Assembly (NCBI GenBank): GCA_000002445.1 | Contig: AL929603.2 | Location: 608,001 to 672,000, forward strand | Direction: 5' to 3' | Length of the DNA stretch: 64,000 nucleotides | Source: Trypanosoma brucei | Lineage: Eukaryota | Notes under the pieces: generated by a model | Database searches by the model: none | Seen by the model: only the letters and a program-made list of their open reading frames with translations | Told to the model about the DNA's origin: nothing | In this document: positions 31,561 to 58,600 of the stretch, piece by piece | Layout: every line of letters starts with the position of its first letter | Position numbering within the stretch: position 1 is the first letter of the stretch | Translations under genes and position numbers: made by a program

Positions 31561-31846
31561 TCTCTTCCACATCACCGGCCAGCAGCAGATTAGTGCGGAT
31601 GATACTGCTGATGGCATGCTGCCAAGTGTTATCACATTTTTACCCGTTGTTTATATTAACAAAGCACTCTCAAATTGTTTAGGCCTTTAATCCTCTTCCA
31701 CCGCGTGGCAGTTGCCATGATACCAGTTCATGCGCTGAGGCAGCTGCGTAGTAGGGTCGTATTCGTTGGGCTTCCGCACAGGCATTCGCGAACTGACTCT
31801 TATGCCACGAAACGCCCATACACACCGAAACTGCAGGAGACATTCT
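31561..31846. repeat. right arm of the 286-bp inverted repeat; its distal 68 bp (31778-31846) is also the first bases of the transporter tandem-repeat unit
   Basis: See the left-arm entry. 31778 onward ('acaggcattcgcgaactgactcttatgccacgaaacgcc...') recurs at 35773, 39771 and 43774. Confidence 0.9.
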
Positions 31847-35237: not shown

Positions 35238-37276
35238 CGTCAGCTTTTATGACCAATGCTTAGCTAACATTCACGAGCCACACACAAAACAATACGAAAA
35301 ACAAAGAGGTGAGAAGATATGTTGAGGAATCAAATAATAAAAGAAACGCACACACGAACCACAGGGCACCAACGTTTCAACAACACCGTGCCTCAGCATA
35401 ACTATGGCACACCAAAACCTCGCACACACAAATACACAAACACGTACTTGCGCATCGGGACATCAACCAACTCTGCGAAGTTAACATTAGAGTCGATTTC
35501 CACAGCCCCTTCCTGTCTCCAGAGGGTCCTTACAGCAACCATGATTAAACGACAAAGCGTCCCTCCACAGATATAGGGAAAATTAGGTAAATATCTGCAG
35601 TAGTCCATTTATAGCACGTTCATTCTTCACATGTCAGTTAGTGGGGGAAAGGTAACATGTACGTGACGGCCGGTCCTATTATCAAGAAGTAATAGAAAAG
35701 GCACTACATACGCGTAGCCACACAACTCATGATGTGAGGATATGCAACAACACTATGATTAGCAAAAATGATACAGGCATTCGCGAACTGACTCTTATGC
35801 CACGAAACGCCCATACACACCGAAACTGCAGGAGACATTCTGTTGCTGCTAGCCCCACGGTGGATGATGGGCCATCTCACACTCCCACAACTGTGCCTTA
35901 ATGTACAACACGGAAAGTACAGCAAGAAGACGCAGCGGCCACCAACTCTTTCGCAACGTTGCGTAACCACGTTGATATCCTCTCGGATCAGCAGAAAACT
36001 TTCGCCCGCTGATTGCCCGACCTACACCTCAACATTGTTATCGGCGGAAGGAAGCACCACCGAGAATCTCAAATATAATCACCGTGGTCCCACCACCACT
36101 TTCAGCGCTACAGCTTCTAATCCCATCATCTTTCCCAATTAATATCCCCCTTACTCAAATATGCATCCCCCTGGGGCATGCCATCGTAATAGATAATATA
36201 AACCTTACCCCTCCACATCAGAAATGGAGGCATCATCCAAGTTATATCCCATGTTACAACCCACCCTCCTCATCCTCACAGGACATATCGTTTGTTATCC
36301 AACCAGCAAGAGCGCAATATTCTCTCATGTCCCCCTTTTGTTTCTGGTCAGTCCAACAGTTGCAAAACTAACAAATTTCGACCCCGTATTCTTGTGGTCG
36401 AGGAATGGAACAAAGCATATGCAACGCTCACTGAAAGCGGCATGACGCCACACTAGAGAAACTATACCAGCATCGATAGTAGTCAAACACTGGGTGGGAT
36501 AATAACAGCCAACATGTGCATCCAAATAACCCTTTTTCCTCCTATGCAAGCCTAAATCAGCCAACAGAAAACAAGAGGCAGCGCAATGATAACAAAGGAA
36601 GGTTAGGGGGCACCACCTGTACATAACGAGAGCAGCAGCAAGCAACGGTAAAGGAAGGAGGTTGTGATGCTGCCAAATAGTTGGGAGCACTCAACAGCAG
36701 AAAATAAAACAAGAAAAGGTAAACAAAATGAAACGGTAAGAAAATGAAGAAAATAATAAGTAAGGTGCTCTGGAAGAAAATAAATATAATATGTAGAGTA
36801 CAACATTATGACTAAAGAACGAAACTACGAGAAAATAAAACACCATTGACATGGAGGAAAGTTAGACATCAAAAGAAAAGCACCAGCGGCCACACAGTGC
36901 GAGCACACGGGTAAGCTGAGTTTGCGTCTATTTGCACAATACGTGCTTTGACTTCCAAAGACGGACACAAGTGCGCGCTGATTTCATGAGTGAGGAACGA
37001 AGTGGTGTTGCAGATTTATAACAAAAGTCACGGAGGAGAAATAATAGGGTGGTAATATAAAAAAATAAAAGGGTAAGTTACGGCACCAAGAGTGACTTTT
37101 CACAATTTCTCGGGAAGGATAAATTAAAAGAACAATGCTCCGTACAACAATGTTGGAGTGCTGATGCAACAAAAACAACATATTCATGCGTTTGTTAAGA
37201 GAGAAAAGTAATAAGAATTCATTTTCAATATTATTGCACGGCCCACCTGACATTAGTGCCAACGATACGAGCCGCG

Positions 37277-39235: not shown

Positions 39236-41279
39236 CGTCAGCTTTTATGACCAATGCTTAGCTAACATTCACGAGCCACACACAAAACAATACGAAAAAC
39301 AAAGAGGTGAGAAGATATGTTGAGGAATCAAATAATAAAAGAAACGCACACACGAACCACAGGGCACCAACGTTTCAACAACACCGTGCCTCAGCATAAC
39401 TATGGCACACCAAAACCTCGCACACACAAATACACAAACACGTACTTGCGCATCGGGACATCAACCAACTCTGCGAAGTTAACATTAGAGTCGATTTCCA
39501 CAGCCCCTTCCTGTCTCCAGAGGGTCCTTACAGCAACCATGATTAAACGACAAAGCGTCCCTCCACAGATATAGGGAAAATTAGGTAAATATCTGCAGTA
39601 GTCCATTTATAGCACGTTCATTCTTCACATGTCAGTTAGTGGGGGAAAGGTAACATGTACGTGACGGCCGGTCCTATTATCAAGAAGTAATAGAAAAGGC
39701 ACTACATACGCGTAGCCACACAACTCATGATGTGAGGATATGCAACAACACTATGATTAGCAAAAATGATACAGGCATTCGCGAACTGACTCTTATGCCA
39801 CGAAACGCCCATACACACCGAAACTGCAGGAGACATTCTGTTGCTGCTAGCCCCACGGTGGATGATGGGCCATCTCACACTCCCACAACTGTGCCTTAAT
39901 GTACAACACGGAAAGTACAGCAAGAAGACGCAGCGGCCACCAACTCTTTCGCAACGTTGCGTAACCACGTTGATATCCTCTCGGATCAGCAGAAAACTTT
40001 CGCCCGCTGATTGCCCGACCTACACCTCAACATTGTTATCGGCGGAAGGAAGCACCACCGAGAATCTCAAATATAATCACCGTGGTCCCACCACCACTTT
40101 CAGCGCTACAGCTTCTAATCCCATCATCTTTCCCAATTAATATCCCCCTTACTCAAATATGCATCCCCCTGGGGCATGCCATCGTAATAGATAATATAAA
40201 CCTTACCCCTCCACATCAGAAATGGAGGCATCATCCAAGTTATATCCCATGTTACAACCCACCCTCCTCATCCTCACAGGACATATCGTTTGTTATCCAA
40301 CCAGCAAGAGCGCAATATTCTCTCATGTCCCCCTTTTGTTTCTGGTCAGTCCAACAGTTGCAAAACTAACAAATTTCGACCCCGTATTCTTGTGGTCGAG
40401 GAATGGAACAAAGCATATGCAACGCTCACTGAAAGCGGCATGACGCCACACTAGAGAAACTATACCAGCATCGATAGTAGTCAAACACTGGGTGGGATAA
40501 TAACAGCCAACATGTGCATCCAAATAACCCTTTTTCCTCCTATGCAAGCCTAAATCAGCCAACAGAAAACAAGAGGCAGCGCAATGATAACAAAGGAAGG
40601 TTAGGGGGCACCACCTGTACATAACGAGAGCAGCAGCAAGCAACGGTAAAGGAAGGAGGTTGTGATGCTGCCAAATAGTTGGGAGCACTCAACAGCAGAA
40701 AATAAAACAAGAAAAGGTAAACAAAATGAAACGGTAAGAAAATGAAGAAAATAATAAGTAAGGTGCTCTGGAAGAAAATAAATATAATATGTAGAGTACA
40801 ACATTATGACTAAAGAACGAAACTACGAGAAAATAAAACACCATTGACATGGAGGAAAGTTAGACATCAAAAGAAAAGCACCAGCGGCCACACAGTGCGA
40901 GCACACGGGTAAGCTGAGTTTGCGTCTATTTGCACAATACGTGCCTTGACTTCCAAAGACGGACACAAGTGCGCGCTGATTTCATGAGTGAGGAACGAAG
41001 TGGTGTTGCAGATTTATAACAAAAGTCACAGAGGAGAAATAATAGGGTGGTAATATAAAAAAATAAAAGGGTAAGTTACGGCACCAAGAGTGACTTTTCA
41101 CAATTTCTCGGGAAGGATAAATTAAAAGAACAATGCCCCGTACAACAATGTTGGAGTGCTGATACAACAAAGGAAAAACAACATATTCATGCGTTTGTTA
41201 ATAGAGAAAAGTAATAAGAATTCATTTTCAATATTATTGCACGGCCCACCTGACATTAGTGCCAACGATACGAGCCGCG

Positions 41280-43238
41280 TCAGGACCTCTTGGGCGCGAT
41301 CCCGTTGCCCTCCGCATTGGGTGTCACATCGCTGTCCCCTTCACAGACAGTTTCTTTCCCCTCAGGGGAAACATCAGCCGCCACCTTCCTCACGGGTTTG
41401 CCGTCTCCATCCAACTCCTCGTCCATGCGAGCATCGGGGAGAAGAGTAAAGATGAGAGGGATCTGAATGCACGGTGCCACGAAGCCGGAAATGAGCACAA
41501 GCCACTTTACATTGGCGAAGTCACATGGCACCAGTGTTTTCACAGGCAGAGCATATTCCATTATAACTGACCCAAGGGAACTACCCACCGTGCCGCCGAA
41601 ATTGCTCGATGCAGCAAGAATAGCGTACACAGTACTCTCGCTTCCACGAGGACACAACCGTGAAAGAATAATGGTTAACGGCATCCAGTGCATCATCCCG
41701 ATCACAGGAGATATGACGACATCGCAGCAGAAGTAAATCAAGTAGTCACTGACGTATGGCCGGTTCCATCGCATCACTATAATGAAGTCGAAGATGTTGG
41801 AGACGATGAGGAACACCAGTGTCAAGAAGTAAGTCATCCGATAAGTCTTTTTTGAAAGGAAGTAATTGAACAGCACGACACCCAGAGCTGAAGTGACACT
41901 TCCAACTGTTCCACCAACAGTCTGCAGGAAAAAAAGACTGAAGTGAGGTCCACCCGGATTGCAATCGGGTCCGGTCAGGAAGAACGGGGTGACAGCACCA
42001 CCAAAAGACACCGTAGACGCATTGTGCAAGTAACTGAACAGATTCACCTTCGCGACCGCCCACGACAGCGCATAGAAATTGAAAGAGCAGTGCCCCACGG
42101 AAACGACAGCCGCGGCAATGAGTAAATGCAGCCTCGATCCAAACAAGGAGGTTATGGCAACACCAACAACAAAGAATGCTATTAGCACGCTGTATATTGT
42201 CTCACGCTTGTTGCGCTCAAGGACCTCTTCGTTCATCTGGAACACACCGCAGCAGCACTCACGAGGCTCCCTGAACACAAATGGCTTCACAGCTGCCTCA
42301 CCGCCGTCAGCGTTAGGCCCCGCCACCGGCTCGCTGTTTGTCACTTGGCGCTCCACCATCCCACCATTTACGTCAATTAGATCATTGTCATCAGCCACCG
42401 GAGGGGTGTCCTTAGCCTCTTTTAACTTCTGCTCGTGGAGCACATGGGCATCGATGTACCGCTCCTCACGGTTGGGCAGTTCACCAAACCAATTGAACAG
42501 GAAGAATGGTGCCACCAGCAGCTGGACAGCGCTACCTATCATGGGAGATATCTGCGGTATGCCAGCGTCACCCAAAGGACCAACAATAACGGAAACAAAG
42601 AGACCAGCCAGGATAATGAACCACCAAACCCAACTCACCAGAGCAGGCCCTGGACCAGGCACACGGCGCATCATCCGGCTGTATAGTCCCTGCGATAGAA
42701 TGTCCGTACATGCCCTGCTGAGCCCAGAGAAGAAGAGGAACACGGAAGCAATTGCTGCACTCGATGGCTGCGCTGGGAGCAGAGCAAAGCCAAGGGAGAA
42801 TGCGGGACCGACGAGATTCGCCACAAACATGTACCACCGTTTGGTATAACCGAAGAACGGGAATATGTCGCTGATAGCAGCCAAAAGAGGCTTCACAGAC
42901 CACCCCATGCCGGCGATGTTAGTTAGCCGCTGGTAGACAAGACCCTCAACACCGAAACGGTTCAAAAACATCGCAATAATGGATCCACCAACAAGTCCGT
43001 TGGCAAGACCCTTACACAAGAAATACGATAATCCAATGGAAAGCACGGGCTTAGGACCATAGCCCTCAGCTGCCTCCCCGAACAAGGGGATGTGCCGAAG
43101 ACACGGAACCTTGTTGAACAGAGCCCGTGCCTCGGGGTGCACAAACGTTGCCTCCTTAGATTCCTCACTGTGTAGCTCAGCGACGAGTACGGCATCACCA
43201 CCCCGCGCATCGAACGAACCATCTTCCTGTCGACCCAT
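41280..43238 (-). CDS. folate/biopterin (pteridine) transporter, BT1/FBT family, 652 aa (array copy 3, promoter-proximal)
   Basis: About 99% identical to copies 1 and 2. Copy-specific residues include 'KGLANGL', 'FLNRFGVEGL', 'DNDLIDV', 'YLHNAS', 'FFLTGPD', 'MMHWMP', 'SNFGGTVG'. Confidence 0.85.
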   Translation of the reverse strand: MGRQEDGSFDARGGDAVLVAELHSEESKEATFVHPEARALFNKVPCLRHIPLFGEAAEGYGPKPVLSIGLSYFLCKGLANGLVGGSIIAMFLNRFGVEGLVYQRLTNIAGMGWSVKPLLAAISDIFPFFGYTKRWYMFVANLVGPAFSLGFALLPAQPSSAAIASVFLFFSGLSRACTDILSQGLYSRMMRRVPGPGPALVSWVWWFIILAGLFVSVIVGPLGDAGIPQISPMIGSAVQLLVAPFFLFNWFGELPNREERYIDAHVLHEQKLKEAKDTPPVADDNDLIDVNGGMVERQVTNSEPVAGPNADGGEAAVKPFVFREPRECCCGVFQMNEEVLERNKRETIYSVLIAFFVVGVAITSLFGSRLHLLIAAAVVSVGHCSFNFYALSWAVAKVNLFSYLHNASTVSFGGAVTPFFLTGPDCNPGGPHFSLFFLQTVGGTVGSVTSALGVVLFNYFLSKKTYRMTYFLTLVFLIVSNIFDFIIVMRWNRPYVSDYLIYFCCDVVISPVIGMMHWMPLTIILSRLCPRGSESTVYAILAASSNFGGTVGSSLGSVIMEYALPVKTLVPCDFANVKWLVLISGFVAPCIQIPLIFTLLPDARMDEELDGDGKPVRKVAADVSPEGKETVCEGDSDVTPNAEGNGIAPKRS

Positions 43239-46200
43239 CGTCAGCTTTTATGACCAATGCTTAGCTAACATTCACGAGCCACACACAAAACAACACGAAA
43301 AACAAAGAGGTGAGAAGATATGTTGAGGAATCAAATAATAAAAGAAACGCACACACGAACCACAGGGCACCAACGTTTCAACAACACCGTGCCTCAGCAT
43401 AACTATGGCACACCAAAACCTCGCACACACAAATACACAAACACGTACTTGCGCATCGGGACATCAACCAACTCTGCGAAGTTAACATTAGAGTCGATTT
43501 CCACAGCCCCTTCCTGTCTCCAGAGGGTCCTTACAGCAACCATGACTAAACGACAAAGCGTCCCTCCACAGATATAGGGAAAATTAGGTAAATATCTGCA
43601 GTAGTCCATTTATAGCACGTTCATTCTTCACATGTCAGTTAGTGGGGGAAAGGTAACATGTACGTGACGGCCGGTCCTATTATCAAGAAGTAATAGAAAA
43701 GGCACTACATACGCGTAGCCACACAACTCATGATGTGAGGATATGCAACAACACTATGATTAGCAAAAATGATACAGGCATTCGCGAACTGACTCTTATG
43801 CCACGAAACGCCCATACACACCGAAACTGCAGGAGACATTCTGTTGCTGCTAGCCCCACGGTGGATGATGGGCCATCTCACACTCCCACAACTGTGCCTT
43901 GATGTACAACACAGTCTTGCCAGCTAATTTCATTGATCTTTATAGGGGATAGAGGACTGTTTTTCGGTATGAATACTAATGTTATGATATCTTCGAGTTT
44001 GTTATCTGAATAATCTATGATCTCATTTCCTGTTGCGGAATAGGAAAGTACCAACCAACGCCATAATGTACCTACGCATTACAAGAATTTATTCCATGTT
44101 TAACTTCAGTGTCGTTCTCGGGCGCACTTAAGCATTCTTGCCGTTGCCGAGTATTCGCCAAATGTAATGTGTTTGAAGTGCCTTCTCTCCCCCCTCTTAA
44201 GCTCCTTACTAGTACATGTTTTGTGGCTTTGACTGTGATGTGATTCATGGGGGGCTGTTCTTCAATTCTGTTCAGTTTCTGGTGGCATGCAGGTGTTTTT
44301 CCAGGTATGTATTGCTTATCACCTCAGTTGCTCCTACCAATGGAACGCAAATGTGCGTTGCCTTTCAGTGTTATAGATGTGTCTGTCAGATTGCATGACA
44401 CGTATGTGCTACTTTATGAACATCTCCTTTTGAAATCCGTTGGCTCCAGCACCGCTATCACCACGTCTCTTTGTAAAATGCATCATGTAGGCTCCATCCA
44501 CATGACCTCCATTGTTCACTTCCCCACCACCACCCAACCCCCTCCCTTCACCTTTGGATGTCACCGTCCCCTATTGGTTAATGGATGCATCCGTCAGTAG
44601 TGGTTTTGTGACTGCCAGAGTTGGGGTGGTTTGACGGGGGTACTCTTCATTGCATCAATCCACTTTCAGCCAACCATCGATTTGTGAGGAGGTGATTCCG
44701 CTGGATCTTTGTCCTTTCATGCACTGCGCTGAAGTTGTGAGAACTGCTGAAGCATCATCCTCAAAAAAGAAGTGGCATGTAAAAGCTGATCCCGATCGCG
44801 CACCTGCGCTGCAGATCTCGACCGACGTGAAGCTACCTAATTCTTTCACCGTGGGCCTTCCAAGGGGTGTCGATCCACTGAGCGTTCCTGCCTTTTTTTT
44901 TTCTTCCACTCAAAGGAACTGGACCTCTTGTGGTTAAACAGCTCCAGGAGAAGTCACAGCCCTTTATCAGTGTCGTTTTATTCCACCACCCCCCCCCTCC
45001 CTCCCCTGCTGCTGCGCCCTGTCGCACATCTTCCTGCTACAGTATTTACCCCCACTGCTACCCACTCTTTTTTTTTCAGCCTGTCCAAAAAGCCGTCGTG
45101 AGTCCAAACGCGTATTTTTAGCTAAGTCGGTAATGTACGCCACGTTTTCAGCGCCCCAGAGTTGTCTGCCAGTCCTCTCTATTGCGTGCGAAATGTCTGG
45201 ACCGTATTGACAGTACAGCGGGAGCTGAGAGATCTCCACAGACCACCCCGTCTCCGTCCGATATCGAAAGTCCGTGTATGTACCACCCGGCAAACCCACC
45301 TAGAAAAAAAAAAAGAAGGCCCGCAAACAAAAGATGGTAACTACCTCGTCATGCAGCGCAAATTGCGCCCCGGCGAAACAGTCTCCTCGTAGTCCTCCTG
45401 GCATATTTTTTTTCTGTTTGGGTAATGAACAGCCTTCTTCGTAGCAACCTTTTTTCCTCACGCTATTGTAAAAGGAGCTAATGGTAAAAGAAAACTACCC
45501 ATTATGCAGCGGTTGAGGCCGATACTTCCGTAACCACCCGCGTCGTTTCCTTTCGCATTTCATCCGCTTCGGAATTCGTGAACAGGGCTCCTGTCCCTAA
45601 CTCCAGCCCACTCAAGTGACAATATGTTAACGTCCCCTTGTTGCGGTACCATTCGCTACAGCTCCTCTTGAGCAGCTATCTCTCACGATGAGTGCTTCGA
45701 AGAATGCCGCTGCTGCTCTGAAGAGACGGCCCTGTCTGATCACATGTTACTTCCCAGGATTCCCCATAAAGTAGTTAATTCTTCTTTCCCTCTCTAGAGG
45801 AGCGTCTCCAACAAAAACGCCTCATTTAACAGATCGAACTAAGCCCTTAGTTGTTTGTGTCTCGGTGGGGGAACTCTATTAGGTCCTTATGTTTTTCTAG
45901 GGAACTAATTTCGATAATTTTTCGGAGTGCTCCCCAACCGATGTTGATTCTTTCCCTCACCCGATGTTGGCAAGCCAATTTTTTTCTTTCCAAACGGCGT
46001 TATCCCGCCCCATTGGCCACCCCCAACCCACACCAGCTACGGTACAATGTACTCTTTTCCGTTGTCAGAGTTTTGCCTATAAGTTTGAGTTACCACCTCT
46101 CTACAGGACATGCTTGTCCCCATCGATTGATGTTTCCGCCTAAAGACCTGCAAGAAACATCTATCCCGGTGTTCTACGTGGATCCAGTAACGCTAACAGG

Positions 46201-48592
46201 GTCACTGTGTTATGAACTGAACCGTTTTCAGTCAGTTACAGGGCTATAACGAATAAGGGAGCATTCCCCCGCCTATATCCCTAAGTTGTGCTTCCCAGTA
46301 AATCTACCGAGTTGCTTCGTTGCGAGTATTCTTTGTTTCCAAGCTTACTGTGCTCACATCGTCTTCTTCTTTGTTTTTATGATTAGCCTTTCAAAGCCCA
46401 GGAAGCTATGGACAGGACGTGACTTAAGGTCGGAACTGGAATCACCTCGAACACAGACCTTTGAAGGGGCAAGAGCCTGTAGTGGTCCGAATAACATCTA
46501 TCCATGACCTGTAGTGCTTTGTCTTAACTTTTGAGAGTTCGCTTCCCCAGACATAAACACTTTTTTTGGATTAGATTTCTTTTTAAACTGTTTCATGTCC
46601 GACCTCCGGATGTTTCCACTCGTGCTTCGCCCTCGGGTGCTGAATCCCAATATTTCCCTTTCCCCGGGTCTCAAAGTTTCTGGGGCAGGTAGTTGGTTTC
46701 CCTCTTTGTCACTTGGTCCTTCGGACCACTCGAGTAGCATGTTGATCTGTTACGCACAGCGCAGGAGCATCGGTAACACCGTGCAGTGCTCGAAGGAAGT
46801 TGCGAATTTTTCTTTTTATATTCGCTTTTTGAATTGCCTGGTGACTGGAGTCATCTTCCTTTACTTGGACCCCATACTGCTATTTCCAAATTCTCAATTC
46901 CCTGTCCGTGGGCTTGCCCTCGCCACCTACATGGCTCAGAAGTACTCATGCAGCGTGCCTTCCAGTCAAGCATGTTCTTACAGGAAACATCCTCTGGCCA
47001 AGTTGCTCTTCTCCATAGCAGAGAAGTGTGGCACGTTTTTCCCAGTTCAAATTCCCCCTTGATAGATGATGAAAACACCACACTACAGGGCGCCAGCGGT
47101 TTTTCGGATGACATTGTTAGTATGTACCCCATCGTCCCTTCACATGAGTGGATACTTTCCTCTCGCCCTGAAACCACTTTCAATCAGTTTTTCATACGCG
47201 CACACACACCAAAACCATACCTGCCGAAGACGTCGACGAGAGGCAGGGCCGCGTCGGTTTGGCAGCTGGTGCTGGGGCGGACCTGGCATCTTGGATAGCG
47301 GGACAGTCTCGCCACGGTGCGGATCGTCAGTTTTGTTGATCTTCCAGTTGTGTTTACAAAGTGGGGGTCGCACCCGCAGTTCGTCCACGAAAGACACAGC
47401 CCTAGTCGGAAAACTCGGAAACCGTGTCCGTTTCACCTTCGCTTCTTAGAGTCATTGCACAAGCCGGGCGACGAGTCGGTAAGTTACAGTTTTCGAGCAT
47501 TTGCCCTTGCGCAACCTGGTTTGATGGGGAGGTTTCATTTCCTCTCTCTTTTTTTTTTCTTTATTTGGAAGGAGGAGGATTATGTGCGAACGTGAGCCCA
47601 CGTATGCTCGCCTCCCGTTATGGCCCGTCAACGAGGCGAAAAATGGTCGGCGTGTCAACCGTTTTGCATTGCAGGCGCCCGCGCGCGAGTCTCCGCTGTA
47701 GTTGTTGTTATTGTTTTTGCAGAGTTCTACTCGCGCCGTCGTGAGAGTCAGACACCCGCGGCCGTAGCCGCAAGCCGCGACACAAGACACTTTTCGGTCG
47801 CAAAAGTACCGCCGCGCGGGGCAACATGGCGCGAAAAGGCGGAGCCAAGAAATCATGGAGGGTGGCTGCTGCTTAAGCGGCCGCGGTGACTGAAAGGGGT
47901 GTGGTGCAACCGCGCAAATTCGGGGACTAACACCGGGGGTACTCTTGAAGCAAGCTGTTCACCACGGGCAACAACTTGAAGCACGAGTACTCGGACATGA
48001 CGTTGCATGCCGCTGAGCGGAAAGCGTGTGAGTGCCCATTTCACTGTTACCCTTTACCCGGGTATTCTTTCGCGAAGGCTCAAGCCTGCAAACGGTTGCT
48101 GCTTTATCAGCAACCTTGGAGAACCTGAAGGGAAGCTACAGTATGTACTTTGGTGCCGTCATGTGTGCCGCTGATGTTATCCTTCTACTCTCGGTATTTT
48201 GATTGGAGCAGCAGCAGTGAGCCCACATGCGCTAGTTACACGCACATGGAATTAATATGAGCTTACTAAAATAAGTGAGGTGCCCCATCTGCTAACATGT
48301 AAGGGAAATGGGTTTGCACGGACCCCTTATCCCATTCCAGTAGTAGGGGTTAAACCACACGTGTGTGCAGGAACCCGTAACTGCGTTTCCTTTGATAATG
48401 ACCCTATAAAAAGGAATAAGAAGATGGTTTAATGAGTCTAAACTCCTAAATCTGTGTGGGGAAGTGAGCGAATGATGTTAAATTGATACCCGCCTATGAA
48501 CCTGAGCTATCTCGTTGAACTGAATCTCTCCTTTCTGGCATCTGTCTCTGCATCTTGTCATTAGCGCTGTTGGAAACCCCCATACATCAACA
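43239..48592. other. divergent strand-switch region: ~5.3 kb without supportable CDS between the - strand transporter array and the + strand unit starting at 48593 (inferred Pol II transcription-start zone)
   Basis: Six-frame ORFs in 43913-48590 are all under 171 aa, mutually overlapping in different frames and without recognisable motifs. Composition is less pyrimidine-skewed than the inter-CDS spacers. Flanking genes diverge from it. Confidence 0.6.
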
Positions 48593-49333
48593 ATGAAACA
48601 TGTTTCTGAAATGTTCATCCCTGGCATGACATTATCGCACCTTGTTTCTCCCTTGCTCAGCATGCCAACTGCCACGAATCGTTTCTACGCACTTTACGGC
48701 CATTATAGCGTGCGTGAGGGGGATAGTGATGCAACAGAAAGCTCATTGATAGTTGAGGCCGTAGTGAGAGTCGTGTTACCCCTACATGCAGCGCCGCCAG
48801 AGGAGACAAAATTTATAGGTTTTGCTTCCGTGAAAAAGTCCAGTCCACACAAACTCTCATATGAAGAGACAAGGTTGCTTCGAGGGGATACTGAACCCGC
48901 AGAGTCATTCTTGCAAAAAAGTGATCGGTCCTACCCAATGTTGCTGCTTTTAGTGACAACACCTCTCGAGGTCCCTGTAGCAAAGAGTACAAAAAAGGTG
49001 GAATACAGTGTCTTTGAGTGCAAAACAGGCTCAGCGGACTTTTCTGAAAAAGCGATACCCCTTAAGGTAGATAACATGGTCGACTCTTTTTCCGCGTTTG
49101 TCCGGCTCAGCAATTTGGGGAGTCATGCTCTGGTTCGCAAGCAGTCCTCACCACCTACGCAGAGTTCACCCTCAGCGAACGAACTCAGTTTTCAATCCTC
49201 CATTAGCCAGTTAGAAGTGGCGAGTGCTAAAAGGCAGACGCTTCTAAAGCGTTTGGCCGAAGTGGAACGACTCCTTGAGCGTAAACAAACGGGGATGCTG
49301 AGAGCAGATGAACAGAAGCCCAACCGTATTTGA
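48593..49333 (+). CDS. hypothetical protein, 246 aa, C-terminal coiled-coil segment
   Basis: First ORF after the divergent region, preceded by the pyrimidine tract 'ctctcctttctggcatctgtctctgcatcttgtc' plus AG. The C-terminal 'ISQLEVASAKRQTLLKRLAEVERLLERKQ' is heptad-like. No known domain is present. Confidence 0.45.
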   Translation: MKHVSEMFIPGMTLSHLVSPLLSMPTATNRFYALYGHYSVREGDSDATESSLIVEAVVRVVLPLHAAPPEETKFIGFASVKKSSPHKLSYEETRLLRGDTEPAESFLQKSDRSYPMLLLLVTTPLEVPVAKSTKKVEYSVFECKTGSADFSEKAIPLKVDNMVDSFSAFVRLSNLGSHALVRKQSSPPTQSSPSANELSFQSSISQLEVASAKRQTLLKRLAEVERLLERKQTGMLRADEQKPNRI

Positions 49334-49657
49334 GCAAGCATCCCTTGGTGGGTTTTATTTCGTCCGTCACACTGCTGAGCACTGACTTGCACCGTAATTG
49401 TATGTATATTTGTGATCGGAAGTTTTTGTTGTTTTCTTTTTTTTTTTTGCGGAGATTATGAAAGGAGGTTGTAAGGTATCCAACCAATATTTCTTTTATT
49501 GTGAGGGGTTTTGGAGTATATCTTGTTGCTGCTAATGCTAACAGAAAGATTATAATGTCTTCGCAATGCGTAATGGCCTGTGGAACACGTGAGCCGAGTC
49601 ACACGCTTTACTTTTAGCGGCTATTACCATTGGTGAGAGGTCGATGACTACACCCAA

Positions 49658-49661
<4 letters not shown>

Positions 49662-49690
<29 letters not shown>
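49662..49690. repeat. (AT)n microsatellite
   Basis: atatatatatatatatatatatatatat read directly. Confidence 0.9.
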
Positions 49691-49691
<1 letters not shown>

Positions 49692-50814
49692 CGTAAGTCT
49701 ACCCTGCTACACCGTATGTCCTGTATGTGTTTGATTTAACAGTTAAAGTTAGCTTTTCCTGACAAGTTGTGCGCACTGGCAACAGCCACATATTCATAAC
49801 GCTTTCGAGTGTGAGGGTGTGATGTTTGGGATGAGCTTCTGATTATGTTCCTATGTAGGAGGGGGCATAAGGATGTGGTGCCTTACCTGCGCGTCCAATA
49901 TTGCCGTGGCATAGTCAAGTAGTACTTTCTTTTAGAGGTGGTTCCGCGTCACGCATGAATTTGGCAGGGCATTGTCTCCGCATTCCCTTCGTCAGCGTCT
50001 CAGATAAGCATTTCAGATTTGTATTTCCTGTGGAATACCACCACCGATGAAGAACATGTCCGAATTGCTATCCAGTCTGTTGTGTTGGCCGCATCACAGC
50101 ATTCGCAGTGTATGACGTTGGAATGCTTTTCGTAAGGAACTGGACGTAAGCCACCTGAACGTAGAACAGTGCACTTGCCTCAACCGGTTTTTTGGTAGTG
50201 GTGCCTCCGTACCCTGGCCACGCAAGAAAAGGAAAAGGCTCACGAACGTCACGTGGTTTTTGTAAAGGTACTGAAGAATAGGAGGCCACATCTAGGCATC
50301 TAAAGTGTCGTAACGTGATGGTCTTTGTCGGGTCGAGTTGGTGAGAAAGTTTGACTGGTGATTTTGGTTCCTTCGTTTTCCACAACGAATGGCATAGATT
50401 GTTTATTGTCGTGGGATATTGTGCCACTCTAACATCAGTCTAACACTGAAGCGTAAACGAAAAGATGGGCTTAAGCGGACTGGTGTGTGTGGTGTCAATT
50501 TAAGTACCGTGCATTCTAGATGGAAAGCTTTCCACCGTGTTTTTTTTTTTAACCACCAACATTAAAGCGGGAAATTATTTTCGTCGGCGTACTATATGTA
50601 CCGAGTCAAACTCAGCCACTTCATGTAGTCGTCCCCCCCCTTTGGTCTGTCACTCTGTTATGGTAACAAGAGGGGTGGCCGAAATAGGTGGTGTCTTCAC
50701 TGCCGTGAACGCAGATTGGAAGTGTTACATCAAAGTTTCCAAGGACTACTTCTGGAGCAAAAAAAAAAGAAGTTTCGCTAAATGACTACAGTATACATGC
50801 TGATATAAATACAT

Positions 50815-53800
50815 ATGCTTTTTGGGGGAAATGGTTCGCATAGCGAAATGCAATGCAGTGACGGGAAAACATGTGAATGTAGCCCTCGACTCACGAAAAA
50901 GTACACTTTTATTCCATTATGTTCAAGTCGTTTTACCATGTTGTTGTCCATCCCGGTAAGAAGTGGGTGCGAAGCAAACAGTTTAACGGTAACAAGGGAT
51001 AGAAAACATGGAACAAGTAATTGCGCTCCTCCATCAGTTGAGGTGTCACCCTGCGCATCTTCGTTTCTGGTAGGTGACGCCGCACAAATTGTTGTTTGCC
51101 TCCTGAAGTCACCGAGCGTGTACCAAATCTGTGGAACCGTTTTGTTCCGTCAACATCGAGTTGGCTCACTCGCGTGTTGCTTTGTGGAACCTGAGGGCCG
51201 GTGGGGCGACTTTGGTTGTTCAGCAGTGACAACTCTCACATCGAATGAATCTAAGAACATACACATCGGCGAGGGGAGCGATATAGTGTACTTTTCTTTT
51301 ATGTCCTCGACTGAGGTGATGGCAGTATCGTACGGGGCTTGCGTTGGGTACATGCAACTGAGCGCTGACAAACACATTATAAAAGGGAAGAGCATGCAAT
51401 TGGACGGCTTGTCAAACGTATCTTGTGCCTGTTTGGTCAATGAGCTGTCGTTATTGGTGGTACTGACCGAGAGGTATGTATGTGGAGTGGTGGATATTCG
51501 CAGCGGTTGTATTCTGGAGGTTGTATGCGACAGCATGCCGGTTAAATTAGGCATCCCGTCATCGTGCGTCCTGCTACAGCTAGGAGATAGTGGCACAATT
51601 GATATCATGGTGAACTTCCCCTCAAGTGTAGAACCACATATACTCACTTTGCGGAGAAAACAATGTGAACCCCCCTCCGCTGACGCGCAAAAGCGTGTCA
51701 AAGCCAAGCATAATTCTCACCTCAAGGATCTAACAGGTGGGCTGTGCACCAAGCGTTGCGAAGATTTTTCCCTTGTGGCATCCGTTGGGTGGGAAATGGT
51801 GAAGTTTCTAGTCATGCAAAAGGGGAAATTGCGGGGCCTCGCTAATTTTGAAAACGAAACTGGTACGCCCTTTTTCTCTGGATTTTGGGCCGGTGATCAT
51901 TTTGTTGCTATCCGTGCCGATGGTTTGGTTGTATTCCTGTCGGTTGAGTTGCACCAGGGGCACTTCGATAAGCTTGAGATTTCCACGTTGGGAAGCATGG
52001 ACCTCATATCTTGCAGCGCTGCACTCTTGTACGAACAGTCCGATCGCTTCTTTGTTTTAGCGGTGAAAAACATGGAGGCACTATGGAACAACGCATCTGA
52101 TGCAGTCTGCATATCGGATAGCAACAACGCAAGACGTATGCTCAAGTGTCATACCGCCCCTGTATGCCCGACGGGCACCGTATTGGTTGACACGGTGTTC
52201 TTTCGTGATGGAATTGCTCTGCTCACCGTCGAGTCTTCCGGAGACTGCTCAGCGACATTTTTAACTGCGTCGGGAGCCCCATCACTGCTATTGGCGAGGG
52301 AAAAAAATCCAGAAGATATTGCCAGTTGCCTGTTGTACGACCAAAGAGAAACAATTTTCGTCACGGGGCACCAAGACGGAACACTGCATGTTTGGATTAC
52401 GGTACAACTTAGACACATCGTTCATACAGGACACGCAGGGCCGGTGGACAAGGTAGTGTTACTACCCGAAGGCGGAAAACGGTGTAGTTACGGCTTCATA
52501 TCCGTCTGTACGCAACGTGGGAGCGTGGTAGTGCATCACGCCGAGACATTTGAATGTGTATGCGTGGTGCAGGCGCCAAGTGCCCCACTTACCAGTCTAC
52601 TGTGGGATCCGTCGAGTGAGTGCATGATTGCAATCAGTGGAACTCTCGGAAACCTTTGGCACGCACCCACACATTGTATTCGGTTCGCTTTTCACACTTC
52701 GTTGTGCACTGCTGAGGGCCTAAAACGACCGGATCTACTGCGGTATCCATACAGGAGTGAAGACGTGGAGGTAGATAAAATCTCCGTGTGTGGAAGAACT
52801 TATCTTTCCATCCGTGTAGATGTGGCGTCCCTTCTCGACGCACTGAGTCAGCGCGGTGCGGGTGAATTAAGACCAAGTAGCCGGATCGTGCTGTCTCTTT
52901 TATTTTCTCGACTCAGTCAAGTTATAAAGCAGTTAAGGGAGTTTGCTGGGTCTACGAATACCTCGAAGGATGGTCATGAGTTTTTTAGTCCAGTCAATGG
53001 GGTTCAGTCTGGCACGTATACATTAGCTACTTCCATTGCGTGCAAATTACTTAGCGGCTCGCGGGGATCCGCGGATCTTGAGAAGGTGATATACGGAAAG
53101 GAACTTTGTGACTCGCTTTTGAACTCAGGTTGTATTGCGGAGGTGCCGACACCCGAAGACATTATTATCCAAGCGTTTCCGCTTCTGTTAAAACTGACAG
53201 AAGTAGCACGAAAGGCAGTCCGTCAGTCCATCAGGGCAGCAATGGCTTTGCTTCCAACACAGAGGTTAAACGACCTGGTGAAAAATCTCCTCAACAGTGC
53301 CTCCAGCGACTCATCGATACGTCGTTGGTTTGGGGTGTCATATTCAACTTCAAACGTTGATGTGTGGTGCTATAGCCTGTTGATTCAGCTGACCATTGCT
53401 AGTGAGGCACCAGCAGCTGAATGTGCGGACGCAGTGTCTTCTGTGGTACAAAGCCTTCGTACGGAAACGCCGTGCTTTGCGAAGGTGCTCGTAGCCGAAG
53501 GCGAAACTCAACGCCTTCTATTTTTTTTACTCGTTCTTAGAGACTACTACGCGTACATGGCCGGAAACCTACTAACCGACTTACAACCCGTGGCTGACGC
53601 CGTGGCGACACTGGCATTCGAAGCAGATGGTAATGTTTCTGCGTCAGCAGTGAAAACCCTGCTAGTGATCACCATCACAGAAGGAAGACCTTTCATACAA
53701 GACTACCTAAATAGGTGGTATAGTACCAATGTCCACTGGAGACCCCGCCTACTTGGGTTCTTGGGAAGCCTAATTCAGGTGGCGCCTCTTCAGTCGTACA

Positions 53801-54354
53801 TTTCATTTTCAACAATGAGGGAACTGTTCCTACAGGCGTATGATCCACACAATCCCAGTAGGGTAGAGAGGGACGCGTGTGCAATGCCAGCGCTTCGTTT
53901 GATTGGTCTAGCGGTTACTTACCTTCCCAACGTTTCCTTTCAGCAGCAGCTGCAGTACCTAGCTGTAGGCAACCACGACGGTGTTGTACAGGTCATCGAT
54001 TTAAAAACAACCGGTATCATCGCCTCATTTGCCTCCCACACAGAAGCTATCCTTTGTGTCTCATATAGTAGCAACACGTCGAGCCATGACATCGCGGTTC
54101 TTGGCGAAAAAATGAATCAGGTAAAGGTGTGGCATGGAAGCCGCTCCACTGGTGTATTCGGTGCACTGTTTTCGGGCCCCACGATTGAATTTCGTCTCAG
54201 ATTCGTCGTTGATATACCACTACTCACGACATTCGATCCGGTGTCGTGTGACCTGCAGCTATTAGTTACCAAGTGCAAGCTGAAGTGGCTCTCGCCGCGA
54301 TGTGTTGAACTGTGCACACCAGTTCATGACAGATTGAGACTAACTGTTCCGTAA
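50815..54354 (+). CDS. large WD40/beta-propeller-containing hypothetical protein, 1179 aa
   Basis: WD-repeat-like units: 'VTGHQDGTLHVWITVQL...HTGHAGPVDKVVLL' and 'LAVGNHDGVVQVIDLKTTGIIASFASHTEAILCVSYSS'. The ORF is long with uniform coding composition. The true start may be an internal Met. Confidence 0.55.
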   Translation: MLFGGNGSHSEMQCSDGKTCECSPRLTKKYTFIPLCSSRFTMLLSIPVRSGCEANSLTVTRDRKHGTSNCAPPSVEVSPCASSFLVGDAAQIVVCLLKSPSVYQICGTVLFRQHRVGSLACCFVEPEGRWGDFGCSAVTTLTSNESKNIHIGEGSDIVYFSFMSSTEVMAVSYGACVGYMQLSADKHIIKGKSMQLDGLSNVSCACLVNELSLLVVLTERYVCGVVDIRSGCILEVVCDSMPVKLGIPSSCVLLQLGDSGTIDIMVNFPSSVEPHILTLRRKQCEPPSADAQKRVKAKHNSHLKDLTGGLCTKRCEDFSLVASVGWEMVKFLVMQKGKLRGLANFENETGTPFFSGFWAGDHFVAIRADGLVVFLSVELHQGHFDKLEISTLGSMDLISCSAALLYEQSDRFFVLAVKNMEALWNNASDAVCISDSNNARRMLKCHTAPVCPTGTVLVDTVFFRDGIALLTVESSGDCSATFLTASGAPSLLLAREKNPEDIASCLLYDQRETIFVTGHQDGTLHVWITVQLRHIVHTGHAGPVDKVVLLPEGGKRCSYGFISVCTQRGSVVVHHAETFECVCVVQAPSAPLTSLLWDPSSECMIAISGTLGNLWHAPTHCIRFAFHTSLCTAEGLKRPDLLRYPYRSEDVEVDKISVCGRTYLSIRVDVASLLDALSQRGAGELRPSSRIVLSLLFSRLSQVIKQLREFAGSTNTSKDGHEFFSPVNGVQSGTYTLATSIACKLLSGSRGSADLEKVIYGKELCDSLLNSGCIAEVPTPEDIIIQAFPLLLKLTEVARKAVRQSIRAAMALLPTQRLNDLVKNLLNSASSDSSIRRWFGVSYSTSNVDVWCYSLLIQLTIASEAPAAECADAVSSVVQSLRTETPCFAKVLVAEGETQRLLFFLLVLRDYYAYMAGNLLTDLQPVADAVATLAFEADGNVSASAVKTLLVITITEGRPFIQDYLNRWYSTNVHWRPRLLGFLGSLIQVAPLQSYISFSTMRELFLQAYDPHNPSRVERDACAMPALRLIGLAVTYLPNVSFQQQLQYLAVGNHDGVVQVIDLKTTGIIASFASHTEAILCVSYSSNTSSHDIAVLGEKMNQVKVWHGSRSTGVFGALFSGPTIEFRLRFVVDIPLLTTFDPVSCDLQLLVTKCKLKWLSPRCVELCTPVHDRLRLTVP

Positions 54355-54972
54355 GCGCCCCGCTTTGGACACGGGATCTCTTTGAATTTGCTCGTGCCAT
54401 CGCCCCCAAGTGAAGTTTGTTCCTGCATGAAACCGTGTATGCCAGGCGCATTCAGCGCGAAAAGGCAACTGTTGTTTCCCAAAATCAGCAAGAACACTTC
54501 AACGAGCACTCCTTGTTTTCACTAAACAGTCACCTCCATACATGCACGCGAGGCGCGTCTGTCTTCGCTTATTCGTTGTTGTTTGCTTCGTTTGGCTTAC
54601 AGGTGTTTAGTTGCTGATACAAAAAGCGACGGAATAACAGCTCTCGGTAACGGCTGCTTACTTGCCTAGCTTCACAACGGTTCGTTTCGGAAAGTGGGAT
54701 GGGGGAGGGGGGTGACGAGGCTGCTTCCCGGATCAATTATTGTTAGTGTTACCGCTAAACCCGCCTACAACCCCTAAGGATCATTAGTTGTTCCTCGATG
54801 ATGTAGCACGTTTGCTCGCCCCTAAAGGACGTAACAGCAGAGGTACTGTATTGCTAATGGTGGCACATATGCCCCCTGTATAGCAACGACTTGCGTTAAC
54901 CTGCTACGCACACGCACCTATTCCCTAACTTTTCTTTTTTATAAACCGAAGCTCAGTTGTGTAAGAAGCGAA

Positions 54973-55269
54973 ATGGCCGGGGAAGCGGGACTTCCATGGG
55001 TGGCACGCTTCATTAACCACATCTTAACGCCCGGATCGGCCCTCTCGCCGGTGGTTTGGTGCGCGTTCAACGTTGTGATGGCCGCACTGCTCCTGTGCTG
55101 GCTACCGTTGCTTATTTCTATGCCATCGAATATACACCTCTGGGTGTTCGGCTTCCTTGGCGCCGGTCTGGCCTTCTCCACCAATTGGTTCTTCAGGGAA
55201 CTTTCCGCCAGGCCCCCAAGTGCTGCAGAAGCTACCGAGCACGAAGTTCGTGAGAAAAGGAACCAATGA
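54973..55269 (+). CDS. small two-transmembrane protein, Pkr1-like (V-ATPase assembly factor family), 98 aa; possibly unannotated
   Basis: Translation 'VARFINHILTPGSALSPVVWCAFNVVMAALLLCWLPLLISMPSNIHLWVFGFLGAGLAFSTNWFFRELSA' has two hydrophobic helices. By my recollection of yeast Pkr1 it aligns as follows: '..PG(T)S..L....V.....LLL..W..........NIH(F/L)(Y/W).........W(F)..ELS'. It sits in a 1.3-kb gap between two + strand genes with GC3-rich codons. Confidence 0.45.
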   Translation: MAGEAGLPWVARFINHILTPGSALSPVVWCAFNVVMAALLLCWLPLLISMPSNIHLWVFGFLGAGLAFSTNWFFRELSARPPSAAEATEHEVREKRNQ

Positions 55270-55657
55270 CACACAAAAAGGGGGTGAGAAAGGACGGGGC
55301 TAGCAGGCACTAGGGCTCTTAAAGCGTTTGTGGGAAAGCGACTGTTGGAATGTAAACGGTGCTAGGATCGATTCGGACATGTTTCCCCATGCGATACGAA
55401 TCCTTTCGCCTCTTCGCTTGCGCTCATATGGTTTTTCCAACACCCGCACCACTGGCCTGTCCGGTTTTCAAGAGTATTTTTGCGCAAAGGGCAACAGAAA
55501 TGGCAGCAACCCAAGAAACAACACAATCTCTTTTCTCATACTACCTGTTATTCCCTAACACCATGTTCACTTATTTGACTTGTTTGCTTGTTCGTTGCAC
55601 TTCGTTACGTCTCCCGTCCGCTGCCCATTAACGTTCCCCTTTCACACGTAGACTCTG

Positions 55658-58600
55658 ATGTTAACCCCGACACGGCGGCTCCCGAAGGCGCTTTCCCCCT
55701 ACGCCCAAGCGCTGAGGCACGTCGCTCTCAGGGGTGCCACCGCTTTTGGCCCGGGCGCAAAAGAGATGGAATTGGATATGCTCCGGAAAGGAACGCTGCC
55801 AGCCGACTACAGGCCACCTGTCCAAGGAAGGTGGGACGATACCATTGAGCGGTGGGCGTATGCCTGGCAGTTCCCAGCAGAAGAAGAGCAAGATGACATT
55901 ACCAAATCGGTGGAACGCAATGCGTCAGGCATGCAAGCGCTATTGGAGATTGGAAACAAGTTGCTGCGCTCGCCGCCATCTCCAGAACCCCTCTCTGGGA
56001 AAGCTTCCAAGTTGTATCCACCGGTTGGGGACATGTCGAGTGGAAATACCGCATTGCTTCCACCCAACCCCACCTACGATGTACTGGAGCAGGACGTGTC
56101 GGAGCTGATGGCAGAAGACGCAGTGGTTGTGGCTTCCCAGCCCCGTCTACGCGCAGAGGAACTCTCAGCGAAGTACAACGTTCCCATGGCTTACATCGAT
56201 GACAGCTCAGAGGCCAGTAATGCGAGTAAAAGCCTTGCCCTCGTGATGGAGGATGTCGGTTTAGAATTTACAGAGGATGGTCTTACCGTAGTCATATCTG
56301 CCCTATCGAGGCAAGGGTACGGCACCATTGGTCGAGCTATTTTTGATTTTGCCTCCACCATGGGGCTGGGGCCTTCTGCCGAGATGTACAAAGCATTGAT
56401 GAAGTACGCCTCACGACGCGGAGATGTGAACGAATCCATGGCTCTCATTGAAGAAATGAAGGGAAATGGAATTACACCCCGCATCGGCAACTGGCACGAA
56501 CTTATGTACACCTTCTACAAGGCAAAGGACTACCCTGCAGTGAGTCAAATAGTGGATAACATGAAAATGTATGCCAATATCGAACCCAATGAAGTCACGT
56601 TTGTACTTCAACTTAAAGCACTGGCCAAAGACAACTCCCAGTTGAACTCTCTCCCCGAGGCAATTCAGTTGTTTGATCAAATGGAAAATGTCTATGGCTT
56701 TATAGCGTCACGTCCCCATTATGATGCCATGATGTTTCATCTAAGTCAGAGTCCGCGACCGGAAATGAGGCTCCGGTGCGAGGAATTGGCCCACAAAATG
56801 GAGTTGATGGGGATTGTATGGAATGCCAACACATATCTTAACCTTATTCGCTCAGCCCAGGTAGTCGGTGATGTTGCGGCTGTTGAAAAGTACCTCAGTA
56901 GAATGCGCGAGGAGGGGATCCCAGCAAGCATCGGGCACCTAACATGGGCCGTTCAAGCGCACGTACAAAGCATGATACGGATAGATTACGATGCGCTGAA
57001 GGAAAAGGATGAAAGCCCCCTTCCTACTTGGCTCGAGCATCTTGAAACGTGTTTTGGTATCTACGAGCTAGTCGTCCGACGCGGATGGGTAATGCAGCTC
57101 CCCTTCGTGAACGCACTTCTTCGCCTAACCTGCCAAGCTACCATCCTTTCCATGGAGCGCACGCCAGATGAAGCAGAGACCATCGGTAGGTTCGAGGAGC
57201 AAGCCAACAAAATTTGGAATCATACATTTGACGAATGGCAACTGCAAAAGGACGTCTACAGCTACGAATGTTACATTGCGCTTCTGGCACACCAGCAGCG
57301 CATCGATGAGGCTGAGAAACTTTTTCAAGAAATGATACTAAAGAAGGATCTGTCACCGTCTAGGAGAACATATCACTGTATGATCTTCATGCACCTGTCG
57401 TCGGGTGAGGAAGGAGGAACTGCGAGGGCCCTCAGATATCTGGAGGCAATGGAGCGCGCCGGTATCCAGGTTAGGCCATCCCTTTTGAAGAAAATCGTTC
57501 GGGTAAATAACGCTGCGGGGTACAAACGAGATATGAAGCGGCGTGCGCGGCGTATCATGCAGGCGAGGGAGGAATACCTTGCTAGGAAGGCAGAGGGCGT
57601 TAGCTTCGGGGAAGGAGGGAAGGAAGGAGCTTCGAATCAAAGGGCAGATGTTGACGCGGAGGGAAACTCCATCCTAGAGCCTCTCGCTGTTTCTCCCACT
57701 TCAACGCTAGCTTGGTGGGAAAAGTGGAAGCGGGAGACCGTGAGTAAGCACGAGCTGTTTACTGAGGAGGGAGCTGACGGCACTCCAAAGGGAGAAACGT
57801 TCGAAGAAAAAAATGAAGCTCTCCGGATGATGGGCATCACGTCCTCATTTCAAACGAAGGATCTCGTCCCGCAACCCGACAGACAGAAACTGCTGCCTCT
57901 CATCAGAAGGGAAGAGGGGGAAATCGCGGGTAGCCTTTGGGCAATGGATGGTGGTGAGTTGTCGTATCCGAAGGATGGGGGCGGCCCACAAGGTTGGGGT
58001 GTCCGGCTCTGGCGTGAGCGGCAGCTTGTCAAGCGGGAATACCAGAAAGTTTTGGACGGATATCGTCCTGTTCCCCAGCTTTCAACACTTGGAAACTCTG
58101 TCCGAACGGCCGGTGACCAATTAGATATTGAGAGGAGTGGGGCGCAGACGCCTGGGGAATTGTCCGATTATCGAAACTTTCCTGATAACCGCTTTGACGG
58201 AGGTCAGCTGAAACCCGAGTCAGAGGCAGCTCCAGCAGTTCCCTTTTCCGCAGAACTGGTCTGGCAAGGGGAAGCCAATGACAAGCTCTCGCCCTACAAG
58301 TCCGACGAGGAAATTGCCCTTGAAAACGACAACACTTTCTTTTCAAGCCTTTCCAAGGAAACGGAGGGAAAGCTAAGTATAGCGGTGAAGGCGATGCAAA
58401 ACAAAGAGGAGAATTCTGTGGATGTTAGAGGAAAGGGGGTGACGAGACGTTCTAAGTTTGATTACTTGGAAAAGTGGAGAGACATGTATCGGCACGGCAC
58501 ACTGGAGGTGCCTGAGGGACCAACACTGAATTTTGGCCGCACGCCAGACGATCACAAGGAGACAATGGCAGCTTTGGTTCGCGGTTGGTATCAACGCAAT

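Follow-up and report, generated by a model that had tools for sequence, protein, structure and literature searches.

The gap between two diverging gene clusters on chromosome 1 of Trypanosoma brucei brucei TREU927 is very probably a divergent strand-switch region that serves as a start region for RNA polymerase II (Pol II), with dispersed and bidirectional initiation in a central core and a processed leader RNA on each side. It lies in a stretch of 64,000 nucleotides corresponding to positions 608,001–672,000 of the chromosome (hereafter, the window), in which the position of any base equals its chromosome position minus 608,000; between the flanking coding sequences (CDSs) the gap extends from 43239 to 48592, its unique part from 43913 to 48592 and, in chromosome 1 coordinates, the strand-switch region from about 651.2 to 656.6 kb. 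The region represents ordinary biology and, as a start region, was already published in 2010.

The genes on either side of the gap point away from it, as an earlier note on this DNA had claimed. Indeed, the pteridine-transporter array on the left is encoded by the − strand as far as position 43238, the CDSs on the right, headed by Tb927.1.2970, are encoded by the + strand from 48593 onwards, and the strands of the mapped spliced-leader acceptor sites (SAS) agree with those of the genes, so that both units are transcribed outward from the gap in the manner of a T. brucei divergent strand-switch region. The three 652-aa − strand open reading frames (ORFs) of the window belong to the BT1 family of transporters according to Pfam, the pteridine transporters being Tb927.1.2820, Tb927.1.2850 and Tb927.1.2880 (PMC5114424). 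The offset between the GeneDB v4 ORF coordinates (Kolev et al. 2010, PMC2936537) and those of the ORFs in the window is constantly 608,000 (e.g., Tb927.1.2900, at 652247–652600 of the chromosome, is found at 44247–44600), and the 1179-aa product of Tb927.1.2980, a + strand neighbor, is 100% identical to a TREU927 protein. The left boundary chosen by the earlier note, 43913, is the exact end of the transporter repeat unit, and from there to 48592 the DNA is unique within the window, its sole other match being a 25-nt pyrimidine tract; neither tandem repeats nor meaningful dispersed repeats were found in it.

Both flanking units were typed as "Divergent" putative Pol II units by Kolev et al. 2010 (Table S14), one running from Tb927.1.2880 to Tb927.1.2820 on the − strand and the other from Tb927.1.2950 to Tb927.1.3320 on the + strand. 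In the same study, reads bearing a 5′-triphosphate were found to be enriched, in both sense and antisense orientation, at every divergent unit, and the enrichment of such RNA ends at the starts of the present units is known here from this literature look-up. The proposal of the earlier note that the gap is a Pol II start zone thus coincides with a published classification; initiation would, however, not occupy the whole 4.7 kb, since the transcript maps leave a zone of 2.27 kb, bounded by the outermost acceptor sites.

These maps of SAS and poly(A) sites (PAS) were obtained by Kolev et al. 2010 with procyclic forms. On the + side, the transcript of Tb927.1.2950 begins at an SAS located at 47572 (chromosome position 655572, 14 reads), with a minor site at 47575 (655575, 1 read), and ends at a PAS located at 48420 (656420, 1 read); its length of ~850 nt and its two processed ends are those of a trans-spliced and polyadenylated long non-coding RNA (lncRNA), in which a 5′ untranslated region (UTR) of 48 nt precedes an annotated ORF of 89 aa. 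The acceptor signal preceding this transcript is kept in T. b. gambiense, save for the deletion of one T. On the − side, the first processed RNA would be Tb1.NT.32, whose attribution to the − strand we infer from two coincidences, namely that its 3′ end, 43405, is the exact repeat homologue (+8001 nt) of the position at which the − strand transcript Tb1.NT.30 ends, and that a pyrimidine tract followed by AG ends exactly at 45300, directly upstream of its 5′ end, a coordinate convention identical to that seen at the acceptor sites of Tb1.NT.31 (40549) and Tb927.1.2880, where the + strand CT at 43265–43266 reads as AG on the − strand. Furthermore, the start of Tb1.NT.32 is larger than its end in Table S7, as in every "−" entry of that table. 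The assignment of Tb1.NT.32 to the lncRNAs follows from the boundaries given in Table S7 and from the signals in the DNA.

Between chromosome positions 653299 and 655572, the tables of Kolev et al. 2010 contain no SAS, no PAS and no novel transcript. Given outermost acceptor positions of 45299 (− strand) and 47572 (+ strand), initiation would be confined to the core that separates them. Likewise, the SAS, PAS and transcript tables give no sign of a continuous transcript reading through the region on one strand, a finding that would have spoken against a start region. The description of the interval as gene-free therefore holds insofar as no conserved CDS was found, and fails at the transcript level in view of the two published processed RNAs; similarly, the suggestion of a non-coding RNA locus is borne out by two low-abundance processed RNAs lacking a conserved ORF, and not by any structured RNA of the Rfam type. 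A nanopore lncRNA survey reported novel − strand lncRNAs in the transporter spacers only and none inside the strand-switch region, and a full-text literature search for Tb927.1.2950, Tb927.1.2970 and Tb927.1.2980 yielded no mention of them.

Taken together, these data suggest a pathway in which Pol II would start in both directions at dispersed, motif-poor positions within the ~2.3-kb core. Trans-splicing would then cleave the nascent polycistronic RNAs at the earliest usable pyrimidine tract followed by AG, i.e., at 45299 on the − strand and at 47572 on the + strand, and the first product on each side would be a low-abundance, non-coding "leader" RNA, Tb1.NT.32 and Tb927.1.2950, respectively, followed by the first real mRNA, that of Tb927.1.2880 (SAS 43264) on the left and that of Tb927.1.2970 (SAS 48565) on the right. 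Both leader RNAs are presumably devoid of function; Kolev et al. 2010 explained odd RNAs at the starts of units by the coupling between trans-splicing and polyadenylation, of which they would be by-products.

Several circumstances weigh against this reading. The exact start positions within the core are inferred and not observed, the transcript data cover procyclic forms only, the conservation of the core was compared among T. brucei-group loci only, and the PAS of Tb927.1.2950 is supported by one read. In Table S7, Tb1.NT.32 is printed with a "+" and has neither an SAS nor a PAS row. Finally, the GT-rich 10-mers associated with published start regions are not enriched between 42 and 48 kb; a scan with the 157 coding-strand-enriched 10-mers of Dataset EV1 of Wedel et al. 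2017 (PMC5579346) gave 4 matches on the + strand and 10 on the − strand, half of the latter falling in the repeated transporter spacer, as compared with up to 88 + strand matches in one AT-rich intergenic 2-kb bin elsewhere, and the longest G run of the region is a G9 at 44989–44997 (− strand), no G10 being present. The region, accordingly, does not qualify as a GT-rich promoter in the sense of Wedel et al. 2017, a property that fits the remark that T. brucei promoters appear heterogeneous (Staneva et al. 2022).

The coding potential of the gap has a bearing on both the leader RNAs and the rival explanations. Seven ORFs classified by GeneDB v4 as "hypothetical, unlikely" (Tb927.1.2890–2940 and Tb927.1.2960) lie in the gap, all without a detectable transcript (Kolev et al. 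2010); six of them are inside 43913–48592, whereas Tb927.1.2890 (43320–43577) is in the spacer of the repeat unit. In a Pfam scan of stop-masked (X-masked) translations in six frames, the strand-switch region did not match a single family even at E ≤ 5, in keeping with the claim that none of its ORFs has a recognizable product, and no overlooked conserved CDS emerged by homology. The region was then compared with three T. brucei-group loci, from T. equiperdum (GCA_001457755.2), T. b. gambiense DAL972 and a third assembly, GCA_003543875.1 (L003). Over 15 kb (41000–56000), TREU927 is nearly identical to T. equiperdum (99.4–99.8%) and differs by about 2.2% from the other two. Relative to T. b. 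gambiense and L003, the strand-switch region diverges by 1.7–4.2%, as against 0.5–1.2% for CDSs and 1.6–1.7% for spacers, and four of its seven largest ORFs contain stops or frameshifts in T. b. gambiense. In the two ORFs that are open across the strains, nonsynonymous changes outnumber synonymous ones by 5:1 and 8:1, and third-position changes are not in excess. The codon scores of the ORFs of the region are below those of real CDSs (0.13–0.30), the 89-aa ORF scoring 0.03, with the exception of two borderline cases, the 155-aa ORF of Tb927.1.2930 (0.139) and a 92-aa ORF at 47317–47595 (0.137). The core ORFs Tb927.1.2920, Tb927.1.2930 and Tb927.1.2940 exhibit no coding constraint, and nowhere is a frame kept with the synonymous excess expected of a protein-coding gene.

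Could a real protein-coding gene nevertheless be hidden here, for instance Tb927.1.2950 or Tb927.1.2930? The transcript of the former is spliced and polyadenylated and has a short 5′ UTR, and the ORF of the latter is open in all four strains. However, a 7-nt insertion shared by T. b. gambiense DAL972 and L003 shifts the frame of the 89-aa ORF, so that its C-terminal half is altered and its stop comes earlier, and because of this frameshift the RNA of Tb927.1.2950 is, as judged from the sequences, probably non-coding. The 155-aa ORF, for its part, is the one with eight nonsynonymous changes to one synonymous change, mostly at codon position 1; among the ORFs it was the only one searched individually, and in 1.84 billion representative proteins it found a single match, 95% identical and belonging to the T. 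brucei group, and neither a homologue beyond that group nor a known domain. A hidden gene is, on this evidence, quite improbable. Somewhat less improbable, though still unlikely, is that the unique 4.7 kb are decayed remains of a former coding or mobile-element sequence, an origin compatible with the region being now a start region. In its favor are a CDS-like GC content of 0.47–0.55, compared with 0.29–0.39 in most spacers of the upstream unit, and a series of overlapping ORFs on the + strand that runs from 46595 to 47889 with changes of frame. On the other hand, the six-frame scan revealed no Pfam trace of such an origin, reverse transcriptase and endonuclease included, there is no similarity elsewhere in the window, and a GC content of 0.43–0.55 is likewise reached in spacers of the downstream + unit, so that this property is not diagnostic.

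A focused core promoter of the TATA-box type, located at ~48.4 kb and starting the + unit ~190 bp before the ATG of Tb927.1.2970, would be a different matter, and the earlier note had indeed drawn attention to a TATA-like element. The element exists: it is the 13-mer ccctataaaaagg at 48402–48414 of the + strand, which precedes the ATG (48593) by 191 nt, and it is unchanged in the four T. brucei-group strains, although the conservation of 13 nt is uninformative at a strain divergence of about 2–3%. As a start signal, it cannot be reconciled with the transcript map, since the first + strand SAS precedes it by 830 nt and the PAS follows it after 6 nt; the RNA spliced at 47572 (14 reads) ends past the element and, therefore, the polymerase is already transcribing through it. 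The first ORF of the unit in the list of Kolev et al. 2010 is, moreover, Tb927.1.2950 and not Tb927.1.2970. Nor is TATAAAA a rare word, with 19 occurrences in the window where chance alone would give about 10. The 13-mer is an A/T-rich word matched by chance where the Tb927.1.2950 RNA has its 3′ end, in a polyadenylation zone that would be coupled to the next splice site downstream (48565, 151 nt away from the element), and a TATA-driven start is extremely improbable. TATA boxes are not known from the Pol II protein-coding units of trypanosomatids. Only slightly better is the case for a discrete gene encoding a small structured RNA (a snoRNA, an snRNA-like RNA or a product of Pol III), which we regard as very improbable. 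Some T. brucei start regions do abut tRNA, snRNA or snoRNA genes (the units "next to tRNA/snRNA" of Table S14), and one 120-nt window of the − strand, 44933–45052, folds with z = −4.2. However, the search for an Rfam RNA or a tRNA hidden in the gap, a check suggested in the earlier note, had a negative outcome: the covariance models of Rfam gave no match at gathering scores in the whole window and, in E-value mode, two noise matches between 43200 and 48700 (E = 2.3 and 3) that are far below the thresholds of their families, and ARAGORN found no tRNA. The distribution of fold z-scores in the region equals that of a control region (mean z 0.00, with 6 of 154 windows below −2 as opposed to 9 of 152) and shows no excess of stable windows, the RNA of Tb927.1.2950 yields z = −1.1, i.e., no structure signal, repeats typical of snoRNA clusters are absent, and nothing novel was recorded in the region by the nanopore lncRNA survey. 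The window 44933–45052, the only one of the region with a strongly negative z, lies inside Tb1.NT.32 and spans a C9/G9 run and a G-quadruplex-type motif (44989–45006), its stability being probably an effect of this low-complexity tract; G-quadruplex-type motifs, found at 44522–44546 and 44989–45006 of the − strand, were considered as a possible feature of the region and set aside, their frequency being no higher than elsewhere in the window.

As to base composition, the earlier note had contrasted the region with the pyrimidine-skewed spacers of the window. This is correct for the GC content, which is CDS-like (0.47 for 43913–47200 compared with 0.29–0.39 in most spacers of the upstream + cluster, one of which reaches 0.49), and incorrect for the skew, since 43913–47200 is itself the most pyrimidine-rich stretch of the + strand (C+T 0.576 vs. 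0.45–0.57 in the spacers). This skew could suggest + strand transcription beginning as early as ~43.9 kb, a possibility that was rejected in view of Tb1.NT.32 and its − strand splice signal. The GC-rich stretch that had also been pointed out is real: 47600–47899, with a GC content of 0.60, ranks in the top 0.5% of the 300-nt windows and has the highest CpG count of the 64 kb (37 CpG, observed/expected 1.38), and the five most CpG-dense 300-nt windows all start between 47501 and 47701. This CpG-dense island is the only unusual sequence feature of the region. It is conceivable, albeit with a low probability, that the island (~47.2–47.9 kb) acts as a promoter of the CpG-island type or a nucleosome-organizing element, defined by its sequence, and that Tb927.1.2950 is a promoter-associated lncRNA tuning the neighboring units. 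If so, the tuning might extend to the stage-regulated array of pteridine transporters, with its spacer lncRNAs that are up in bloodstream forms, and the island would represent a class of CpG-island-like promoters distinct from the published GT-rich class.

Features of the strand-switch region and of its flanks (window positions; a dot denotes a feature without strand)
Feature	Position	Strand	Remarks
Core of 2.27 kb	45300–47571	.	Devoid of mapped processed transcripts on both strands; putative zone of dispersed Pol II initiation in both directions
Tb1.NT.32	45299→43405	− (probable)	Novel transcript of 1894 nt, 0.04 RNAs/cell; Kolev Table S7, chromosome 653299→651405
Pyrimidine tract plus AG	45300–45320	−	19-nt tract ccttcttttttttttttct; ends exactly at 45300, directly upstream of the Tb1.NT.32 5′ end
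Acceptor signal, first + strand trans-splice	47537–47571	+	29-nt pyrimidine tract (47537–47565), AG at 47570–47571
Tb927.1.2950 transcript	47572–48420	+	~850 nt, trans-spliced and polyadenylated; contains the GC/CpG-rich stretch
Tb927.1.2950 annotated ORF	47620–47889	+	89 aa; reading frame not conserved
GC/CpG-rich island	47400–47900	.	Across the first + strand splice acceptor site; GC up to 0.60
Tb927.1.2880	41280–43238	−	Pteridine transporter (BT1), last, promoter-proximal copy of the array; 652-aa ORF, Pfam BT1 E = 6.6e-116
Spacer of repeat unit	43239–43912	−	Upstream of the last transporter copy; 99.6% identical to 35238–35911 and 39236–39909
SAS of Tb927.1.2880	43264	−	First exon base; chromosome 651264, 24 reads
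Acceptor signal of Tb927.1.2970	48525–48564	+	Pyrimidine-rich tract and AG (48563–48564)
Tb927.1.2970	48593–49333	+	Conserved hypothetical protein (246 aa); no conserved CDS precedes it in the + unit

The interpretation as a divergent Pol II start region can be set against a number of known systems. The present locus is a listed instance of the T. brucei divergent strand-switch regions (Siegel et al. 2009; Kolev et al. 2010), with which it shares units diverging from a gap of a few kb without conserved CDS and low-abundance RNAs at the 5′ ends of the units, there being no substantive difference; its − unit is very short, consisting of three transporter genes. A gap of 5.35 kb between CDSs looks long for a T. 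brucei strand-switch region. On chromosome 1 of Leishmania major, start sites reportedly fall within less than 100 bp in a gap of 1.6 kb with C-tracts, whereas the core of the present region measures about 2.3 kb and its start sites are deduced from the flanking acceptor sites. What the two have in common (Martinez-Calvillo et al. 2003, as cited by Kolev et al. 2010) is bidirectional Pol II initiation in a single inter-cluster region devoid of TATA-type promoters. The GT-rich promoters of Wedel et al. 2017 are similar insofar as they too lack canonical core-promoter motifs, and on its − strand the present region has, besides the G9 run, which is in the sense orientation, a short (GT)n at 47200–47211.

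With the trans-spliced lncRNAs of T. brucei (the "NT" transcripts of Kolev et al. 2010; Guegan et al. 2022, PMC9200285), Tb1.NT.32 and Tb927.1.2950 share mRNA-type processing signals, low abundance and the lack of a conserved ORF. Unlike grumpy, they embed no snoRNA, and they have no structure signal; Tb927.1.2950 is GC-rich, whereas the class as a whole is less GC-rich than mRNAs (Guegan et al. 2022). Kolev et al. 2010 drew an analogy with the bidirectional CpG-island promoters of mammals, which resemble the present region in their broad divergent initiation and, in view of the 300 nt of densest CpG at the 5′ end of the + unit, also in composition. Yet most of the present island comes after the first splice acceptor, nothing comparable exists on the − side, and CpG density is not known to matter in trypanosomes.

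Beyond the gap, the protein encoded by Tb927.1.2970 is 99% identical in T. b. gambiense and 54% identical in T. congolense, and its CDS differs from that of T. b. gambiense by 4 substitutions (0.54%); the first exon base of its mRNA is 48565 (SAS at chromosome position 656565, 69 reads), resulting in a 5′ UTR of 28 nt. The spacer between Tb927.1.2970 and Tb927.1.2980 is filled by Tb1.NT.33, a novel spliced transcript of 1079 nt (49749–50828, + strand, 1.9 RNAs/cell). The main SAS of Tb927.1.2980 (50815–54354, + strand; 5′ UTR given as "NA") is located inside the 1179-aa ORF, at 50928 (chromosome 658928, 83 reads), and, therefore, the true start codon is probably downstream of the annotated one; gene callers predict a counterpart of 1138 aa in two other assemblies. 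A protein search with the 1179-aa sequence was saturated by WD40 words and gave back the protein itself alone, and one with its DUF7048 part gave no match.

In the transporter array, the spacers each carry a trans-spliced − strand lncRNA (35401–36551 and 39398–40549), corresponding to Tb1.NT.30 and Tb1.NT.31 (Kolev et al. 2010) and to nt_255.1 and nt_256.1 of the nanopore survey, in which they are reported as differentially expressed; according to the legend of the table, such differentially expressed lncRNAs are all, with one other exception, more abundant in bloodstream forms. An apparent differential-expression table in the supplement of the same survey lists values above 5 for Tb927.1.2820 and Tb927.1.2880. 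In L003, a copy of the transporter CDS is broken by a 1-nt deletion that may be an assembly error. Finally, a perfect inverted repeat of 286 nt (29377–29662 and 31561–31846, 100% complementary, arms 1898 nt apart) is found in the convergent zone that separates the transporter array from a + unit ending at 28027; its right arm overlaps the transporter repeat unit, and thus a piece of transporter spacer is inverted at 29377. No Pfam match was obtained for the ORFs that the arms enclose, and the repeat could be a hairpin-forming termination feature or a recombination feature.

The divergent start regions of T. brucei have been catalogued since 2009–2010, and the present locus is one of ~60 "Divergent" ones (a rough tally of Table S14 of Kolev et al. 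2010) and behaves like the others, so that it matters little beyond the tidying of annotation. Nevertheless, it illustrates that the "empty" strand-switch gaps of trypanosomes usually hold the spliced, non-coding leader RNAs with which each unit begins, that mapped acceptor sites can narrow an initiation zone, here from 4.7 to 2.27 kb, and that TATA-like words in trypanosome genomes are not to be taken as promoters. Of some, if mild, interest is the fact that this start region lacks the GT-rich signature and has a CpG-dense island instead, which fits the reports of heterogeneous promoters in T. brucei (Staneva et al. 2022).

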